DNA of 64,000 nt, from NCBI GenBank assembly GCA_965228475.1, contig OZ245817.1:3616001-3680000 (forward strand), given 5' to 3'. Below, one piece after another: positions 15,001 through 24,000 of the stretch. Position numbers: made by a program. Source of the stretch: Myxococcota bacterium. GTDB lineage: Bacteria > Myxococcota_A > UBA9160 > JAFDDA01. Every line of letters starts with the position of its first letter. Position 1 is the stretch's first letter.

Positions 15001-18000
15001 ACCGCCTCGAGCATCCCGAACAGCGCGTCGAGCTCCTCTTGTAGGTCGAAGACCGACTCGGGCTCGTGCCCCCGCCCGGCGAAGGCGAGCAGCCTGCGCG
15101 AGAGCAGGGTCGCCCGGTCCGCTCCGCGCAGGACGCCTTCGATCGCGCCCCGCGAGGGATGGCCTTCGGGGAGGTTCATCGAAGCGAGTTCCGCGTCGCC
15201 CATCACCCCGGTGAGCAGGTTGTTGAAGTCGTGGGCCACGCCCCCGGCCACGCGATGGAGCCCCTCGAGCGCTTGAGCCCTCCGGCGCACCTCGGCCGCG
15301 TGCCGCGCCTGCTGGTGGGAGTAGTAGATCACCGAGGGATAGAGGACGAGCATGCAGAGGATCGGGAGCTCGTAGTCCGGAACGTCGTGGAACCACGCGG
15401 CGAACGACATGCCGAGGGTCAGCAGGGTCGCCATCAGTGCGTAGAGCTGGGTGCTCGAGCGGCTCTCCGCGACGCTCGGCGCCTGCACGACGATCAACCC
15501 GATCACGAGCGCCGGGAACCAGAGCTGCGGAACGAAGTGGACCAACGTGACGAGGATCGTGAGGTCGAAGAGCGGCTGGACCCAGGCGTTTTCCTGCATG
15601 GGGACCCGCCGCTCGATCCAACTGGCCGCCGGAACGCAGACGAAGACCAGAAACGCCGCGAGGGGATAGCGGTTGGGCCCGGCGCCAGGGAAGAGGCAGA
15701 GGACGAGCGCGATGCTGACGGCCCCGACGTTCCGGAAGAAGAAGACCGCCTTGGGATGATCCCAGACGGCTCGGACCCTTCTTGCAAGGCTGCGAAGCCC
15801 CGGAAGAACGCGCATGGCCCCTCCAGCATACGCCTCGGGCTCGCGCATCGGGTCGTTTCTACTCGTCGATGAAATCGTTCTCGCCCTCCCCTGCCAGGAC
15901 GTGCTTCAGGACCTTGCCGGCCGCGTTCCGCGGCAGCGCCTCCTCGCGAATCTCCCAGTGGCTCGGGACCTTGAAGTAGGCAAGTGCCTCCCCGACGTGT
16001 CGGCCCAGATCCTCGGTCTTCGGCTTCCCGCCGGCCCGGGGGACGACGAAGGCCTTCACCTCCTGACCGAGCTCCGGGTGGGGCACGCCCACGACCGCGG
16101 CCTCGGCGACCTCCGGATGCTCCTCCAGGCGATGCTCGATCTCGGCCGGATAGACGTTCTCGGCGCCGCGCAGGATCAGGTCCCGCCGTCGGGAGTTCAC
16201 GTAAAGATAACCGTGCTCGTCGAGACGTCCCCAGTCGCCGGTTCGAAGCCACCGACCCGCGCCGATGCTCTCCTGCGTCGCCTCCGGCTTGCCGTGGTAC
16301 TCGCGCATGACGAGGGGGCCCGAGAGATGGATCTCGCCCTCCTCTCCGGGCCCGAGGACACGGCCATCGTCCGGGTCGCGGATCTCGCAGCCGAGGGTCG
16401 GCAGCATGCGGCCGACCGAATCGGGCCGGGCCTCGAGCTCCGCACCGAAGTGGATCGTCGCGAGCCCGGTGTTCTCGGTGAGCCCGTAGCCGAGCCCCAT
16501 CTGACGACGCGCGTTCGGAAAGAAGGAGCGAAGCCGGTCGAGGACGTCCTGCGAGATCGGCGCACCGCCCGAGCCGCACTGCGTGACGCTCGAGAGGTCG
16601 TACTTCCCGGCGTCGGGATGGTCCATGCAGCGGTGCAGCATGTTCCCGAGCGGCCCCCAGCTCGTGACCCGTTCGCGCTCGATCGTCGCCATCGTGTGCT
16701 GCGGGTCGAAGCGCCCCTTCATCCAGACCGTCTTGACCCCGCCGGCGAGGAGCGTCACGGCGCCGGCGTAGAGGCCCGACACGTGGAAGAGCGGCGTCGA
16801 GACGAGCATCACGCGCGGCGGCGGAGGCGGAGCGTCGGGCGGGGGCGGGCCTTGGATCTTCATGAGGCGAAGCCCGTGCCAGACCTGGAGGCGATTGACG
16901 GCGACGATGTTGCGGTGGGTGTTGACGGCGCCCTTGGGGCGCCCGGTCGTTCCGCTCGTGTAGAGGATGCAGGCCGGATCGTCTTCGTCGACGGGGACGT
17001 CCGGGAGGCCCGCCGAGGGGTCGAAGGCCTCGAGCTTCGCGAAGTCGTGCTCGATCACGACGACGGGGATCTTCACGTCGTCCGCGCGCAGGCGGGCCAG
17101 CCGCTTCTCGTCGCCGACGAGGACCTTTGCCCCCGAGTCCTCGAGCCCGTAGAGGATCTCGTCGCGCACCCACCAGCCGTTCATCCCGACCGCGACCGCG
17201 CCCAGGCTGACCGTCGCCCACCAGGTGATGATCCACTCCGGGCAGTTCGCGGCAAGGATCGCGACGCGATCGCCGGGCCCGACGCCGTACTGCGTCGCCA
17301 GCGCGCGGGCCACGGAGCACACCCGGCGGTGGTGTTCCGCGAAGGTGATGCGGCGGTCTTCGTAGACGATGAACTCGGCGTCCCCGAAGGCGCGGGAGCC
17401 CTCCACCAGGGCGCGCAAGGAAGGCAAGCGATCCCGGAAGACCGGCGTCGGCACGCCGAAGACGTTCTCGTGGGTGACGTCGAAGGGTCCGCCCGGGGCG
17501 AGCAGCTCGCGCTCCGCCGCCGCGTGGGCCTCGATGTCGCTCGCCTGGAACGCCGCCGCACTCACGCCACGAGGTCCCCCATCTCGCGCAGGGTCTCGAC
17601 CACGTCTTCGGGCAGAACGGGCGGCTCCTTCCCGAGGTTCCAGGAGCCGAGCATCAGCTGCGCGGAGCGGTCGATGATCTCGACCATGTCGGCCGCCCGG
17701 CGGAGCGTCCGCCCGCCGACGAGGAGGCCGTGGTTCTTCATCAAGACGGCCCAGCCCTCGCCGATGCCCTCGCCGATCGCGTCGGCCAGCGCGCGGGTGC
17801 CGGGCATGATGAACGGGATCCTCGGAATGTTCCCGAAGAAGGCGGCCTCCGTGGAGACCGGAAGGAACGGCAGGTCGGCGTTCGCGAGGATCGTCGCGTG
17901 GGGGGCGTGGGCGTGGACCACGGCCGTGGCCTCGGCCTTCGCGCGGTAGACCGCGCAGTGCATCATCCACTCGCTCGAGGGCGAAAGGCTCCCCTCGAGG

Positions 18001-21000: not shown

Positions 21001-24000
21001 GGGGCCGGCCAGTGGCCCGTGGCCGCGGCGATCTCCGCACCGTCGGAGGCGGCCAACCCGATCGCCTCCCCGGCGGCGCGCGCGTCCCGATTGGACGCCG
21101 CCTGCACAGCAGTGCCATCGGCCGCGAGCAGGACGCTCGAGAAGCGCATGGCACTCGCGGCGACGCCGGCCACCTGTTCGGGCCGCGCATCGGCGCGCCC
21201 GAGGGCGTCCCGGGTGGCCTCCCCGAGCTTTCGCCACAGCGCGGGAAGGTCGACGTCGCTCCCGGTCCCGCCCGTCCCGGGCGCCGCGGCGTGGACGAGC
21301 CCACGCGACGCCCCGAAGACCGCTCCGCTCTCAGCGTCGACGAGCCGAGCGCGGGCGCCGCCGCCGCCGATGTCGAAGCCGAGCAGGTAGGTGGCGCTCA
21401 CGCGCGGGCGGCCGTCGGCTCGAAGGTCACCGGAAGCGCCTTGGGGGCCCGGAAGATCATGCCCGTGATGTGGACGTCCTCGGCGGCCGGATCGAGCGCG
21501 AGCCCGGGCAGCCGATCGAGCACCGCGTTCACGACGGTCTCGGTCTCGGCCTTCGCCAGATGCATGCCGAGGCAGCGGTGGGGGCCGAAGGCGAAGGCCA
21601 TGTTGGTCTTCGTCTCCCGGAAGAGGTCGAACTCCCCGGGCCGGTCGTAGCGGTCCGCATCGCGGTTGGCGGCGCCGAGGTTGACGCTGACCGTGGAGCC
21701 GGCGGGAATCTCGACGCCCGCGACCTCCGTGTCGCGCGTCGCCGTGCGCATGATTCCGAGCAGCGGGCACTCCCAGCGGAGCCCCTCCTGGACGGCCTGG
21801 GGCAGGAGGGAGCGATCGGCCCGAAGGGCCTCGAGCTGCGCCGGGTTCGAGAGCAGGCCGAACAAGAGGTTGCTCGAGGAGCGGTAGGTCGTCTCCGCCC
21901 CCGCCGGCGCCAGCAGGCGCAGGAAGGCGAAGATCTCGTCGTCGGTCAGGCGCGTGCCTTCGAGCTCGGCGTGGGCCAGCACGCTGATCAGGTCGTCGCG
22001 CGGGTCGCGGCGCCGGTCGGCCAGCACGCGGGCGAAGATCTCCTCGAGGCCGGCGGAGGCCTTGGCGCCCCGCTCGAAATCGATCGAGACGCTGATCAGC
22101 TCCACCGCGAGCCGGTGGAAGTCCGGGAAGTCGCGCGCGGGCAGGCCCATCATCCCGGCGATGACCGCCACCGGGAACGGGAACGTCAACTCGCGCACGA
22201 GATCCGCCGAGCCGCGCGCCGAGAAGCGATCGATCAGCCCGTGCACGACGGGGGCGATCAGGTCCCGCTCCCACGCTTCGATCGCCTTCTTGGTGAAGGC
22301 CTTCTGGATGAGTCCGCGGTAGCGGGAGTGCTCGGGCTCGTCCATCTGCAGGATCGTCCGGCCCATGACCTGGCCCATGGTCTCGGCGTAGCCGGCCGAG
22401 GAGAAGGTCTCCCCGTCGCGCAGCACGTGGGAGACGGCCTCGTGACTCAGCGCGACGTAGATCTCCGAGGACATGCCGGGCGGGAGCTTCACGTCCACGC
22501 CTTCGCCGCCCATGAGTGAGCCGGTCTCGATCTTCACGACGGGCCCCTGGGCCCGGAGCGCGGCGAAGATCGGGTACGGATCGCGCACGTTCCCCATGCC
22601 GGCGGAACGGTTGAACTCGTCGAAGGGGTCGTAGTCCCCGCTGCCGCCGTGAGCGGCGAGCAGTCCGGAAACGAGGTCTTCGCTCATGGAGTCCTCCTCG
22701 GCGCCGCGGGGGCGTCGCCGTTGGTCCCAAGCAGCCGGTGGGTGATGCGGAGGACCTCGGCGCGGTGGGCGTCGAGGTGTTCCTTCGCGAGGGGATCGAA
22801 GTCGAGGGCGGGGAAGAGCGTCGGGATCGCGGAAACGAAGAAGACGGTCGCGCCCGCGATCGTCGCCGCGAGATGGGCCGGGTCGATCGGCGTGCGGATG
22901 CCGCCGTCCTCGCTCGCGCGGGACTCCTCGATCGCCCGCTTCGCGAGTTCGACGAAGGGTCCGGTGTGGCGCAGGATCACCGGGCCGTCGGTACCGGTCG
23001 CGCCGGCGATCTCGCGCAGCAGCAGCCGCGCGAAGGTGGGGCGGCGCCCGACGAAGTCGACCCAGGCGGAGATCGCCAGGTCGACGCGTTCCGCCATCGG
23101 CCCCTTGCTGGAGAGCGGCGGGGCGACCTCCTGGTAGAGGCCGTCGAGCACGTGCGCGATCACGGCGTCGTAGAGCGCCGGCTTGTCGCGGAAGTAGTAG
23201 ACGATGGACGCGCGGCGGATGCCGACGCGGGCCGCGACGTCCTCGAGCCGCGTCGCGGCGAACCCGTTCTCTGCGAACAGGACCTCGGCGGCTTCGACGA
23301 TCGCCGCCCGGGTCCGCTCCGCCTTGGCGGTCGTCTTCCGGCCTTCGCTCATCGGGCCTTTCTACCTGCATGCAGGCAGAATTACAATCGCGAATTCCCG
23401 GGCGGGGCGAGGCGCGCGGCTAGCGGGTCAGGAGGATCGCGCTGGCCAGGGGCCCGCCGCCGGCGGCCGCGACGGCGACCTGGGGCGTCGGCGCGACCTG
23501 CCGCTCGCCGCCCTCGCCCCAGAGCTGGACGCAGGCCTCGTGCAGGAAGCCGTAGCCGTGGAGGCGGCCCGCCGACAGCTGGCCGCCCTGGGTGTTCAGG
23601 GGGATCTCGCCGTCGCGCGCGATGCGCGTGCCGCCTTCGAGGAAGGGGCCGCCCTCCCCTTTTCCGCAGAAGCCGAGGGCTTCGAGCCAGGCCAGGGTGA
23701 TGAAGCTGAAGCCGTCGTAGAGCTCGGCGACGTCGACGTCCGCCGGCCGGAGGTCCGTCCGCTCCCAGAGCATGGCGGAGGCGTCGCGCAGGGCCATGGT
23801 CGTCAGGTCGTCCCACTGGTCCCAGGACGGACGCCCGTGGATGGCGGTGCCGACGGCCTCGACGCCGATCGCCGGCCGGCGGAGGTCCCCTGCCCTGTCC
23901 TTCCGCGAGACGATCACCGCCGTCGCGCCGTCGCACGGGACGTCGCAGTCGAACAGGCCGAGCGGGGTCGAGATCATGCGCGCGCCGAGGTAGTCGTCGA

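Follow-up and report, generated by a model that had tools for sequence, protein, structure and literature searches.

A widely conserved fusion of kinase, dehydrogenase, SCP2 and aldolase domains that may remove the polyol end of a lipid

We analysed a 64,000-nucleotide stretch of Myxococcota DNA (the window) and found that P0001 (17562..21401, minus strand) is one real gene for a single four-domain chain, in which an FGGY kinase, a D-2-hydroxyacid dehydrogenase, an SCP2 domain and a class II aldolase are joined, and that the protein is widely conserved. We see an even chance that this fusion works in the cytoplasm as an assembly line, made up of three enzymes and their own lipid carrier, which would cut the terminal polyol off a hydrophobic lipid, bacteriohopanetetrol being the best candidate.

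A single gene found in several phyla

Translation of P0001 gave a stop-free frame of 1,279 residues with a third-position GC of 0.91, like that of the adjoining genes. The start codon is GTG, and the letters GTGA are shared with the TGA stop of the P450 gene upstream. All of its Pfam domains (FGGY_N, FGGY_C, 2-Hacid_dh, 2-Hacid_dh_C, SCP2 and Aldolase_II) scored above their curated cut-offs. An earlier note on this DNA had described a four-domain, 1,279-residue fusion here, and the open frame and the Pfam domains bear that description out.

A protein search returned 729 matches to P0001. All six Pfam families were present in 119 of the 120 matches listed (51–73% identity), the exception being a 995-residue partial sequence; the fusion family has many members and is found in several phyla. 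Across the phylum, 25 of 301 sampled genomes had the fusion, a count that includes the genome of the window; within the order, leaving that genome aside, it was 18 of 47. Several of the copies in the order are cut or broken, and genome G128 has a broken copy with an internal TGA. The order-level count is of the same order of magnitude as the seven full-length and six partial copies in 24 relatives counted earlier, and it confirms conservation among relatives.

Enzyme domains and the SCP2 domain

The kinase domain occupies residues 1–495 (19917..21401; Pfam FGGY_N 5–250, FGGY_C 291–452). Its top NCBIfam model was LsrK, at 229.5 bits against a cut-off of 528, and its top PDB match was also LsrK (5ya0_A, 6.6e-58). 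The dehydrogenase domain, residues 527–857 (18831..19823; Pfam 2-Hacid_dh 531–853, with the NAD domain 2-Hacid_dh_C at 637–821), was closest to the PGDH model (237 bits, below the cut-off of 454) and to PDB entry 1ygy_A (5e-53). Members of the 2-hydroxyacid dehydrogenase family usually act beside a carboxylate group. None of the three enzyme domains reached the cut-off of any curated equivalog among the NCBIfam models.

We compared P0001 with 20 homologues of 54–72% identity. Kinase residues D10 and D243 were invariant, as were dehydrogenase residues R771, E800, H819 and D710 and the GxGxxG motif. In the aldolase domain, mapped on E. coli FucA, E1144, H1163, H1165 and H1224 were invariant, together with the phosphate-site residues T1093, N1096, S1142 and S1143. 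Judged by these residues, the active sites of all three enzymes are intact.

The aldolase domain comprises residues 1073–1279 (17565..18185; Pfam Aldolase_II 1076–1251, 156.6 bits) and is closest to DrdA, a 5-deoxy-D-ribulose-1-phosphate aldolase, by both sequence and fold, a relationship newly found here. DrdA (6btd_A) was the top PDB sequence match (7e-31), followed by FucA (1e-27 and 8e-23) and YgbL (5e-20), with AraD (9e-9), MtnB-type proteins (4e-8) and RhaD (1e-4) weakest. It was also the top fold match (TM 0.91, rmsd 1.6 Å, 36% identity). The domain is nearer the DHAP-forming aldolases DrdA and FucA than the decarboxylase, epimerase or dehydratase members. A tyrosine of FucA and DrdA (FucA Tyr113) is not kept in the fusion, which has Val or Thr there beside an invariant Glu1185, and the aldolase chemistry may therefore differ. 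The part of PMC6079011 that deals with 6BTD describes it as a 5-deoxyribulose-1-phosphate aldolase whose products are DHAP and acetaldehyde.

The SCP2 domain (about residues 920–1043, 18273..18644; Pfam SCP2 951–1029, 43.3 bits vs. a cut-off of 21.3) folds as a genuine SCP2 domain, with a disordered linker on either side, also a new observation. In the structure model its pLDDT is about 97, and the fold matches human SCP2 (8af2_A, Z 11.2) and Yarrowia SCP2 (4jgx_A, Z 10.8). Linker 1 (about residues 884–913, 18663..18752) is rich in Pro, Ala and Glu and varies in length; its pLDDT is <50 at model residues 25–54, and columns 901–960 of the homologue alignment A1 are gapped and unconserved. Linker 2 (about residues 1044–1072, 18186..18272) is predicted to be unstructured, as model residues 185–213 are without secondary structure and pLDDT falls to <50 at residues 201–205. 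In the homologue alignment the SCP2 domain is as conserved as the enzyme domains, and in one clade it occurs twice within an otherwise identical architecture. An SCP2-SCP2-aldolase also occurs as a stand-alone protein, its gene coming after that for transketolase. We propose a carrier role for SCP2.

Gene neighbourhoods

In the window, 4-bp overlaps occur at four gene junctions of a minus-strand cluster, and they tie P0001 to a P450 gene upstream and to a gene for a CasG-like steroid-acid CoA ligase downstream. The start of the acyl-CoA ligase gene (15859..17565) overlaps the fusion stop by 4 bp; its product scored 652.6 bits on the CasG model NF052580 (cut-off 750), vs. 357 for the next-best model. 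The P450 gene (21398..22687; Pfam p450), whose stop overlaps the fusion start, gave generic PDB matches with CYP125 and CYP142 among the top ones, and its own start overlaps the stop of a TetR-family regulator gene (22684..23352; NCBIfam TetR-type matches). Beyond it lie genes for an Ltp-type thiolase-fold protein (23420..24628; Pfam Thiolase_C_1) and its DUF35/ChsH2-C-type partner with an OB fold and a zinc ribbon (24625..25068; Pfam OB_ChsH2_C and zf-ChsH2). The Pfam and NCBIfam matches agree with the neighbours as first named, with one correction. The pair had been called an Ltp2/ChsH2-like aldolase pair, and Ltp2 is indeed the top PDB match of the Ltp-type protein (6ok1_A, 3.9e-54), but the Cys103 of the protein, compared also among orthologues, aligns with the nucleophile cysteine of thiolase 7yvy_A, where Ltp2 has alanine. 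Since this cysteine is kept, the protein may be a thiolase. The window is rich in steroid-type catabolic genes, and a KshA-family Rieske oxygenase gene (41754..43223, minus strand; Pfam Rieske and KshA_C), a possible member of the system, lies 20 kb from the fusion; its homologues adjoin the fusion in other genomes.

A CasG-like ligase, a KshA-family oxygenase or a P450 flanks the fusion in both Myxococcota-type and Halieaceae-type genomes, a further new observation. In 29 of 78 loci the fusion had a homologue of the ligase (at least 45% identity) no more than 3 kb away, in most cases as the next gene downstream; of the well-flanked loci, 17 of 22 of the Halieaceae type and 5 of 27 of the Myxococcota type had one. 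Of the 22 Halieaceae-type loci, 17 had a KshA-family homologue within the same distance, and at locus L002 the oxygenase gene (3e-54 vs. KshA 4qdc_A) shares a 4-bp overlap with the fusion stop. For the 27 well-flanked Myxococcota-type loci the corresponding counts were 12 for a P450 and eight for a TetR gene, and the P450 and fusion genes overlap stop to start in all four loci inspected (L002, L003, L008 and L056) as well as in the window. Overall, the most constant partner of the fusion is an oxygenase, and paired acyl-CoA dehydrogenases also occur among its neighbours. Mycobacterial loci differ, with an aldehyde-dehydrogenase-like gene in place of the ligase, KshA or P450 flank, likewise seen here for the first time; in all five actinobacterial loci of the cluster this gene is downstream on the same strand, at a median of 292 bp.

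Lipid-type neighbours were absent from 19 of 55 well-flanked loci, and some fusion genes sit amid housekeeping genes (pyruvate kinase, a cation efflux gene, GH1, a sulfotransferase). Far more genomes have the CasG-like ligase than have the fusion (65 of 301 overall; 40 of 47 sampled genomes of the order), and in several fusion-bearing genomes its best copy is on another contig, which means that the ligase does not serve the fusion alone.

Proposed reaction, substrate and alternatives

We propose that the substrate is a hydrophobic molecule with an unbranched polyol end of at least four contiguous hydroxylated carbons. The FGGY domain would phosphorylate the terminal CH2OH with ATP, and the NAD-dependent dehydrogenase domain would oxidise the next carbinol to give a ketose-1-phosphate-like end, although these two steps may run in reverse order. 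The metal-dependent aldolase would then split the C3–C4 bond to yield dihydroxyacetone phosphate and a lipid aldehyde that has lost three carbons, while SCP2, on its two flexible linkers, would hold the water-insoluble part and hand it between active sites. The aldehyde would be oxidised to an acid, possibly via the coupled P450 or, in mycobacteria, the adjoining aldehyde-dehydrogenase-like protein, and the acid would be activated by the CasG-like ligase for steroid-type side-chain beta-oxidation.

Bacteriohopanetetrol, with related bacteriohopanepolyols, is the best candidate on chemical fit. The side chain of these compounds is a 5-substituted 5-deoxy-D-ribitol. The first two steps would make of it a 5-substituted 5-deoxy-D-ribulose 1-phosphate, the substrate class of DrdA, and cleavage would leave a C32 hopanoid aldehyde or acid whose side chain, -CH(CH3)CH2CH2COOH, matches the C5 side chain of the bile acids activated by CasG. 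The relevant part of a review (PMC10464518) has bacteriohopanetetrol oxidised to C32 hopanoic acid and calls hopanoid diagenesis not understood, and in one study (PMC11884234) the C32 bb-acid exceeded all other hopanoic acids in abundance. The gene has no direct tie to hopanoids in any of our results, and bacteriohopanepolyols are proposed on chemical grounds. The window's own genome (96% completeness) has no squalene-hopene cyclase domain, a strong cyclase match was found in only 5 of 25 fusion-bearing genomes vs. 45 of 276 without the fusion, and a search of 160 loci and the window met neither an SHC nor an HpnH homologue at 10 kb or less from the fusion. Of the earlier reading, in which a polyol side chain of bacteriohopanepolyols or polyhydroxylated steroids is phosphorylated, oxidised and split off by a retro-aldol step, the logic is consistent with the intact active sites, the DrdA/FucA-like aldolase, the SCP2 fold and the steroid-type neighbours in two phyla; its substrates are less secure.

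Another lipid-linked polyol, such as a polyhydroxylated steroid, a bile alcohol or a chain first hydroxylated to a tetrol by the P450 or KshA-type oxygenase, is an unlikely substrate but one that the neighbourhood accommodates: the KshA, CasG and Ltp2 types would equally suit a true steroid, and the paired acyl-CoA dehydrogenases, the constancy of the oxygenase and the many steroid-type genes of the window point the same way. Polyhydroxylated steroids nevertheless fit less well, because DHAP can be released only from an unbranched end with four oxygenated carbons in a row (CH2OH-CHOH-CHOH-CHOH). So far as we know, the side chains of sterols and bile alcohols branch at C25 or have hydroxyls on too few adjacent carbons, and no abundant natural steroid that ends in this way is known to us. 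It is also quite unlikely that the fusion serves a soluble sugar, polyol or deoxy-sugar route (pentitol, 5-deoxy-pentitol or AI-2-like), with SCP2 as a structural spacer or oligomerisation module. The best models are those of sugar enzymes (LsrK, XylB, PGDH, FucA and DrdA), and both the loci without lipid-type neighbours and the stand-alone protein encoded directly after transketolase would suit it, but the conservation and duplication of SCP2, its match to lipid-binding structures and the steroid-type genes flanking the fusion in two phyla argue against it, as does the finding that sugar transporters (ABC or PTS) and sugar isomerases were absent from the Pfam-annotated neighbour clusters.

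Very unlikely, in our view, is a last domain acting as a decarboxylase (OtnC/YgbL type) or a dehydratase or epimerase (MtnB/AraD type) in a tetronate-like route on a hydroxy-acid end. The OtnC model scored 98.7 bits, near the 113.7 of FucA, YgbL structures gave Z 25.8 vs. 27.6 for FucA, the FucA tyrosine is missing, and a carboxylate is normally needed by 2-hydroxyacid dehydrogenases; against this stand the sequence rank of DrdA and FucA above the YgbL, AraD and MtnB types (7e-31 vs. 5e-20, 9e-9 and 4e-8) and an identity of 36% to DrdA vs. 27–28% and 22%. The kinase of the published decarboxylase route is reportedly a DUF1537 protein, vs. an FGGY kinase here. PMC12994016 does describe routes in which a dehydrogenase, a kinase and a decarboxylase lead to DHAP, but the dehydrogenase there is an SDR. 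There is only a slim chance that the fusion works in the biosynthetic direction, with kinase and dehydrogenase making DHAP from glycerol and the aldolase adding it to an SCP2-held lipid aldehyde to form a polyol head group. Glycerol kinase is itself an FGGY kinase, the reactions of class II aldolases can run both ways and some loci have housekeeping-like contexts. DrdA has been run in the synthetic direction, according to the portion of PMC6079011 concerned. However, DHAP is plentiful in any cell, which leaves little reason for a private supply, the neighbours are of catabolic type (CoA ligase, acyl-CoA dehydrogenases, thiolase-like proteins and oxygenases), and a patchy distribution with broken copies suits an accessory catabolic gene.

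Removal of a C3 sugar phosphate from a ring lipid's polyol tail, as in the lipid-cutting assembly line that we favour, is a step without a described enzyme. If that reading is true, the fusion would be a feeder module that takes an external lipid into an existing pathway.

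Domains and active sites of the fusion protein

The fusion gene (17562-21401, minus strand) is an unbroken frame of 1279 codons with a GC3 of 0.91, similar to that of the surrounding genes, and its GTG start codon shares 4 bp (GTGA) with the stop of the upstream gene. Six Pfam models score above their gathering cut-offs along the chain: FGGY_N at residues 5-250 (121.1 bits, cut-off 28.8), FGGY_C at 291-452 (73.3 bits, cut-off 27), 2-Hacid_dh at 531-853 with 2-Hacid_dh_C nested at 637-821 (181.9 and 54.9 bits for the catalytic and NAD-binding domains, respectively), SCP2 at 951-1029 (43.3 bits, cut-off 21.3), and Aldolase_II at 1076-1251 (156.6 bits, cut-off 22.2). 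The open frame and these matches bear out the claim of an earlier note that four domains are joined in a single chain. When the whole chain was searched against the curated NCBIfam models, it reached no equivalog cut-off: it scored 229.5 bits with LsrK (NF008187, cut-off 528), 237.2 with PGDH (TIGR01327, cut-off 454), 113.7 with FucA (NF005302, cut-off 264), 98.7 with OtnC, the 3-oxo-tetronate 4-phosphate decarboxylase (NF043034, cut-off 250), and 102 with the fuculokinase model (cut-off 471). The top PDB matches of the whole chain were LsrK (5ya0_A, 6.6e-58) and Mycobacterium tuberculosis PGDH (1ygy_A, 5e-53).

We examined the active sites in an alignment of 20 full-length members with 54-72% identity to the window protein. 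In the kinase domain, D10 and D243 are invariant; we take these to be the conserved N-terminal Asp and the catalytic Asp of the GGxDxQ motif of FGGY kinases. The dehydrogenase domain has invariant R771, E800, and H819, presumably the Arg-Glu-His triad of D-2-hydroxyacid dehydrogenases, as well as an invariant D710 and a GxGxxG motif at 684-689, which we assume to be the signature of the same enzymes. It also carries a family-specific and invariant GDMGxMGxAF insert at 661-670. In the aldolase domain, E1144, H1163, H1165, H1224, T1093, N1096, S1142, and S1143 are invariant. We conclude that the window protein belongs to the FGGY kinase, D-2-hydroxyacid dehydrogenase, SCP2, and class II aldolase/adducin families.

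By HMMER alignment with Escherichia coli FucA, H1163, H1165, H1224, and E1144 correspond to H92, H94, H155, and E73 (three His metal ligands and the Glu acid/base), and T1093, N1096, S1142, and S1143 correspond to the phosphate-binding residues T26, N29, S71, and S72; the positions studied in FucA were indicated by the names of its mutant structure entries in the fold-search listing. The FucA Tyr113-type proton donor of the aldehyde site is not kept, its position being taken by Val1182 in the alignment with E. coli FucA or by Thr1184 in the alignment with DrdA (5-deoxy-D-ribulose-1-phosphate aldolase), and an invariant Glu1185 follows. FucA Phe131 is replaced by Pro1200 in the HMMER alignment. 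The replacement of both Tyr113 and Phe131 sets the aldolase domain apart as a subfamily of its own. Being smaller, the substituting residues might make for a roomier aldehyde site, a speculation based on the FucA structure.

When the aldolase domain alone was compared with the PDB, the top match was DrdA (6btd_A, 7e-31), followed by FucA of Streptococcus pneumoniae (1e-27) and E. coli (8e-23), YgbL (5e-20), AraD (9e-9), an MtnB-type dehydratase (4e-8), and RhaD (1e-4). We also built an AlphaFold model of residues 860-1279 from 41 sequences (mean pLDDT 86.2, pTM 0.63). For the aldolase domain, Foldseek again placed 6btd first, with a TM-score of 0.91 on the target, an rmsd of 1.6 Å, and 36% identity, ahead of FucA (30-32%), YgbL (27-28%), and AraD (22%). 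As DrdA is itself 53% identical to a FucA, its lead over FucA as closest relative is small. In PMC6079011, 6BTD is described as DrdA of Bacillus thuringiensis, which converts 5-deoxy-D-ribulose 1-phosphate to dihydroxyacetone phosphate (DHAP) and acetaldehyde, takes a range of aldehydes, and offers them a pocket larger than that of FucA.

The SCP2 part of the model has a pLDDT of ~97 and superimposes on human SCP2 (8af2_A) with a Z score of 11.2 and an rmsd of 2.3 Å over 110 aligned residues. Further fold matches were Yarrowia SCP2 (Z 10.8), the C-terminal domain of the alkyl sulfatase YjcS (Z 9.2), palmitate-bound mosquito SCP2 (Z 8.8), and UbiJ (Z 7.3). On one flank of the domain pLDDT falls below 50 at model residues 25-54; the other is a coil without secondary structure at model residues 185-213, with pLDDT below 50 at 201-205, and both flanks match gapped, Pro/Ala-rich alignment columns. 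In the 20-sequence alignment the SCP2 signature stretch is conserved to the same degree as the enzyme cores, which, together with the duplication of the domain in one clade, argues that SCP2 has a working role. It may act as a tethered lipid carrier. Peroxisomal MFE-2 and SCPx carry an SCP2 domain, and the SCP2-fused lipid enzymes (MFE-2, SCPx thiolase, alkyl sulfatases, and UbiJ) likewise join it to enzymes that act on hydrophobic substrates; in the fusion, by contrast, SCP2 is internal, lies between two linkers, and would serve three different active sites.

The operon and its counterparts in other genomes

In the window the fusion lies in an operon on the minus strand, which begins with a DUF35/ChsH2-C-type protein (24625-25068, minus strand) and continues with an Ltp-type thiolase-fold protein (23420-24628, minus strand), a TetR-type regulator (22684-23352, minus strand), a P450 directly upstream of the fusion (21398-22687, minus strand), the fusion itself, and lastly a CasG-like acyl-CoA ligase (15859-17565, minus strand). 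Neighbouring genes overlap by 4 bp at four of the junctions. With the model for CasG, a steroid-24-oyl-CoA synthetase (NF052580), the ligase reaches 652.6 bits, short of the cut-off of 750, and the runner-up model gives 357. Coordinates and model scores agree with the CasG-like ligase, P450, and TetR neighbours listed in the earlier note. The structural relatives of the P450 were set aside as a guide to its substrate, the closest solved ones being generic (PikC, CYP125, CYP142, and vitamin D hydroxylases).

The remaining pair had been described as an Ltp2/ChsH2-like aldolase. The best PDB match of the Ltp-type protein is indeed Ltp2 of the steroid aldolase complex (6ok1_A, 3.9e-54), but Ltp2 has lost the thiolase nucleophile cysteine, whereas the window protein retains it as Cys103, which is Ala in 6ok1_A and aligns with the nucleophile cysteine of acetyl-CoA acetyltransferase 7yvy_A. 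The window Ltp/DUF35 pair may therefore be a thiolase and not an aldolase. Two kinds of Ltp occur near the fusion, with Cys in the operon-linked Myxococcota-type copies (the window and loci L007, L008, and L056 of other genomes) and an Ltp2-like Ala elsewhere, namely in the Halieaceae-type copies (within L032-L064) and in L017, L019, and L025.

Elsewhere in the window Pfam shows many genes of steroid-type catabolism: a KshA-family Rieske oxygenase, acyl-CoA dehydrogenases, enoyl-CoA hydratases, a MaoC hydratase, family III CoA-transferases, three further CoA ligases, and two further P450s. A bactofilin gene is also present. Several other features were recorded there. At 25094-28595 (minus strand) two genes precede the operon, one for a 406-aa protein with two cNMP-binding domains, 25 bp upstream of the DUF35 gene, and further upstream one for a 745-aa CHASE2 adenylate/guanylate cyclase, hinting that the operon is under cyclic-nucleotide control; among 80 related loci the cNMP-binding gene has no homologue and the cyclase gene has one, in L005, with 30% identity. 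A UbiA-family prenyltransferase gene (13157-14164, plus strand) is convergent with the operon and separated from it by a hybrid histidine kinase gene (14187-15599). In the closest relative, L001, a copy with 80% identity lies past the ligase, ~1.8 kb from the end of the fusion; none was found in the other loci. At 55626-57671 (plus strand) a P450 gene is directly followed by a Coq4-family gene, an unusual pair within a catabolic island. A 387-aa frame with high GC3 (36264-37427, plus strand) has no Pfam match at E 1e-5 and lies immediately before an acyl-CoA dehydrogenase gene, which it overlaps by 1 bp; it may encode a divergent partner subunit. A promoter and terminator scan of 13000-27000 was uninformative because the counts equalled those of shuffled sequence in this 72% GC DNA.

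To survey the neighbours elsewhere, frames were called in the 80 loci and clustered by blastp, and cluster representatives were annotated with Pfam. The fusion frame was recovered in 78 loci, and 55 were well flanked, with no less than 2.5 kb on either side. Of these, 27 are Myxococcota-type, 22 are Halieaceae-type, and six are actinobacterial. Within 3 kb of the fusion, a CasG-like ligase (at least 45% identity) was present in 5 of the 27, 17 of the 22, and none of the six, respectively; a KshA-family oxygenase in 2, 17, and none; and a P450 in 12, none, and none. Across the 78 loci the ligase was found within 3 kb in 29, mostly immediately downstream on the same strand. As in the window, the stop of the P450 gene overlaps the start of the fusion in L002, L003, L008, and L056, and in L002 a KshA-family gene shares 4 bp with the fusion's stop; its product matches KshA (4qdc_A) at 3e-54, compared with 3.5e-22 for the best non-KshA match. 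Recurrent in the Halieaceae-type loci are paired acyl-CoA dehydrogenases, Amidohydro_2 proteins, Ltp with DUF35, and family III CoA-transferases, and in 11 of the 22 the gene after the fusion encodes a 154-aa glyoxalase-fold protein. The fusion cluster of L024, L048, L059, and other Halieaceae-type loci further includes a TonB-dependent receptor, an RPE65-type carotenoid-cleavage oxygenase, and a PQQ-dependent alcohol dehydrogenase, a set that may point to a hydrophobic alcohol being taken up from outside and oxidised.

None of the recurrent Myxococcota- or Halieaceae-type neighbours was found in the actinobacterial loci. A gene for a 539-aa aldehyde-dehydrogenase-like protein follows the fusion there on the same strand, at a median of 292 bp, in the five loci of its cluster, and the neighbours in Mycobacterium ostraviense (L013) include 3-beta-HSD/epimerase-type proteins, WS/DGAT acyltransferases, and a FadD-type ligase. 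In an Actinomycetota MAG, an ERG2/sigma-1-receptor-like gene of the sterol isomerase family (L033:9249-9956) lies directly upstream of the fusion on the same strand.

We read this placement as that of an accessory feeder module, often beside an existing side-chain pathway. The data would also allow the fusion and the steroid-type genes to be merely co-located in catabolic islands. Against the evidence from lipid-type neighbours, 19 of the 55 well-flanked loci have none; in one locus group the fusion is surrounded by genes for a pyruvate kinase, cation efflux, a GH1 glycosidase, and a sulfotransferase, and the stand-alone SCP2-SCP2-aldolase of L081 comes after transketolase. The CasG-like ligase is much commoner than the fusion, being present in 65 of 301 genomes of the phylum and, within the order, in 40 of the 47 sampled. 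Several fusion-bearing genomes have their best ligase copy on another contig, whereas in genome G083 of the phylum sample it adjoins the fusion. We did not count the genome-level association of ligase and fusion (21 of 25 genomes with the fusion vs. 44 of 276 without) as support, since the presence of the ligase in 40 of the 47 order genomes means that the association is confounded by descent.

Family spread, architecture variants, and hopanoid synthesis genes

A protein search returned 729 matches; among the 120 listed, 119 have all six Pfam families, with 51-73% identity, and the exception is a 995-aa partial. Database names of family members are "NAD(P)-dependent oxidoreductase," "class II aldolase/adducin family protein," and "autoinducer 2 kinase." A scan with one genome per species gave 169 relatives, from which 80 loci were retained. 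By record title, 37 are of Myxococcota or "Deltaproteobacteria" type, 27 of Halieaceae, Gammaproteobacteria, or Pseudomonadota type, five from Mycobacterium (kansasii/simiae group), two from Actinomycetota MAGs, and one from Limnocylindria; the other eight are MAGs titled Margulisiibacteriota, Spirochaetales, Enterobacteriaceae, or Bacteroidia, labels that are uncertain, and were assigned to the clade of the most similar fusion. The fusion is present in 25 of 301 sampled genomes of the phylum (own genome included, with a single copy) and in 18 of 47 sampled genomes of the same order (own genome excluded), where several copies are cut or have an internal stop. These broken or split copies (G128:C1:5214399-5217560 and others in genomes G057, G183, and G188) contain an internal TGA, TAG, or TAA or lie in two pieces, which suggests ongoing loss of an accessory gene.

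Three variant architectures were found. In a tandem clade (metagenome loci L082, L084, L086, L087, L089, and L127, and protein P0019) two SCP2 copies lie between dehydrogenase and aldolase, the order being kinase-dehydrogenase-SCP2-SCP2-aldolase in, for example, L082, L084, and L089; these copies score ~105-110 bits each on Pfam SCP2, compared with 43 bits for the window's single copy. The kinase is missing from the dehydrogenase-SCP2-aldolase proteins of L092, L093, and L095 and from that of L153, where a divergent FGGY gene is encoded separately. One SCP2-SCP2-aldolase stands alone (L081:9944-11659), with no kinase or dehydrogenase within 10 kb; it starts 28 bp after a transketolase gene and converges with two genes, one for a polyprenyl synthetase and the other for an FMN-dependent dehydrogenase that may be a type 2 IPP isomerase.

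We looked for a link between the fusion and hopanoid synthesis. No cyclase domain is present in the own genome, a single contig with 96% completeness. In the phylum sample, strong matches to triterpenoid cyclases (E < 1e-30, counted from the result table) were present in 5 of 25 genomes with the fusion and 45 of 276 without it, indicating no association. In two genomes, G083 and G168, the cyclase adjoins HpnH, which marks them as true bacteriohopanepolyol producers, yet the pair is on a different contig from the fusion. When four cyclases and three HpnH proteins from related genomes were used as tblastn queries against 160 loci and the window, no match was found within 10 kb, so that membership of the fusion in a hopanoid cluster was rejected. 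All of these tests were neutral or negative. If the substrate is a hopanoid, its source would be external, which is compatible with a catabolic role and proves none.

A proposed reaction and its candidate substrates

From the order of the domains, their intact active sites, and the DrdA/FucA-type aldolase, we propose a one-chain route of phosphorylation, oxidation, and retro-aldol cleavage. The FGGY kinase would phosphorylate a terminal CH2OH, the dehydrogenase would oxidise the neighbouring carbinol to a ketone, and the aldolase would cleave the product to DHAP and an aldehyde. LsrK, which phosphorylates a terminal CH2OH beside a carbinol, is the best match of the kinase domain (5ya0), but the domain falls far below the cut-off of that autoinducer-2 kinase, and no lsr genes occur among the annotated neighbours of the fusion. 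PGDH (1ygy), the best match of the dehydrogenase domain, oxidises a carbinol beside CH2-O-phosphate; unlike that of PGDH, the substrate proposed for the fusion would have no carboxylate. The L-fucose/D-arabinose route (FucK and FucA) also pairs an FGGY kinase with a FucA-type aldolase whose metal- and phosphate-site residues (E. coli FucA) match those of the fusion, which adds the dehydrogenase and SCP2 and has Val and Pro in place of Tyr113 and Phe131.

Such a cleavage calls for a substrate end with four contiguous oxygenated, unbranched terminal carbons. The C31-C35 chain of bacteriohopanetetrol is, we assume, derived from the ribose of adenosylhopane and hence a 5-substituted 5-deoxy-D-ribitol. 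Once phosphorylated at C35 and oxidised at C34, it would be a 5-substituted 5-deoxy-D-ribulose 1-phosphate, that is, the substrate of DrdA with the hopane skeleton replacing a hydrogen, presumably with the D-erythro configuration on which FucA-type enzymes act. The lipid product of the retro-aldol step would be a C32 hopanoid aldehyde. Its oxidation would give an acid ending in -CH(CH3)CH2CH2COOH, apparently the same C5 side chain as in bile acids, which could be activated by the CasG-like ligase and then shortened in the manner of bile-acid side chains. A product of this kind is known from geochemistry: according to a review (PMC10464518), bacteriohopanetetrol is oxidised to C32 hopanoic acid and the transformation processes remain unknown, and the bb-C32 acid is given as the most abundant hopanoic acid in one study (PMC11884234).

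The earlier note had proposed that the fusion cuts the polyol side chain from an SCP2-held lipid, for instance a bacteriohopanepolyol or a polyhydroxylated steroid. Its chemistry is reasonable and the steroid-type neighbours support it in part; the substrate is unproven, with the hopanoid tests neutral or negative. We put the chances at about even that the fusion clips DHAP from a lipid-bound terminal polyol. That this lipid is a bacteriohopanepolyol is possible but on the unlikely side. The full proposal, in which the fusion is the entry enzyme of bacterial bacteriohopanepolyol breakdown and turns the bacteriohopanetetrol tail into DHAP and a C32 aldehyde that passes to the ligase and to side-chain shortening, is correspondingly tentative, and we would sooner expect it to fail than to hold. 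Other candidates were set aside by reasoning: for riboflavin/FMN with its ribityl chain, corticosteroid side chains, alkylglycerols, sphingoid bases, and branched bile alcohols, either stereochemistry, branching, or the number of contiguous hydroxyls bars FucA-type release of DHAP. The tetronate pathway was rejected as the closest system, as its dehydrogenase is an SDR (PMC12994016, accessible part) and the aldolase domain of the fusion is nearer to DrdA/FucA than to YgbL.

The DHAP shunt, or 5-deoxyribose salvage (DrdK-DrdI-DrdA), ends in the step proposed here, from a (5-substituted) 5-deoxy-D-ribulose 1-phosphate to DHAP and an aldehyde (PMC6079011, accessible part). The shunt reaches its ketose phosphate by a kinase and an isomerase acting on an aldose, whereas the fusion would do so with an FGGY kinase and a dehydrogenase, a pairing that implies an alditol substrate. 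The shunt enzymes are also separate small proteins without SCP2, and DrdA shares only 36% identity with the fusion's aldolase. Although the neighbours of the fusion belong to the families of steroid side-chain degradation (CasG/StdA1 ligase, Ltp2-ChsH2 aldolase, and KshA), no protein corresponding to the fusion figures in the steroid pathways treated in the accessible part of the review PMC8399759. The fusion is thus set apart from the known kinase-aldolase DHAP routes by the joining of its domains, by the dehydrogenase step, and by the putative internal lipid carrier. In the literature searched, which included few subscription journals, we found no description of this fusion and no gene or enzyme named for hopanoid breakdown, the papers on hopanoid degradation not being gene-level; none was found on structures 6VOP and 6VOQ.

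Hopanoids are among Earth's most abundant natural products and are key molecular fossils. If the proposal is true, the conversion of bacteriohopanetetrol to C32 hopanoic acid would become a defined reaction open to testing, its gene could serve as a marker in metagenomes, and the C32 hopanoic acids, and possibly the shorter hopanoid ketones, of soils and sediments would have an enzymatic origin. Myxococcota-type, Halieaceae-type, and some mycobacterial lineages would then be hopanoid consumers. Whatever its substrate, this large multi-phylum family, annotated merely as "NAD(P)-dependent oxidoreductase" or "autoinducer-2 kinase," would provide a rare soluble multi-enzyme in which a flexibly tethered internal lipid-carrier domain serves three active sites, an arrangement relevant to substrate channelling and to biocatalysis on insoluble polyols.
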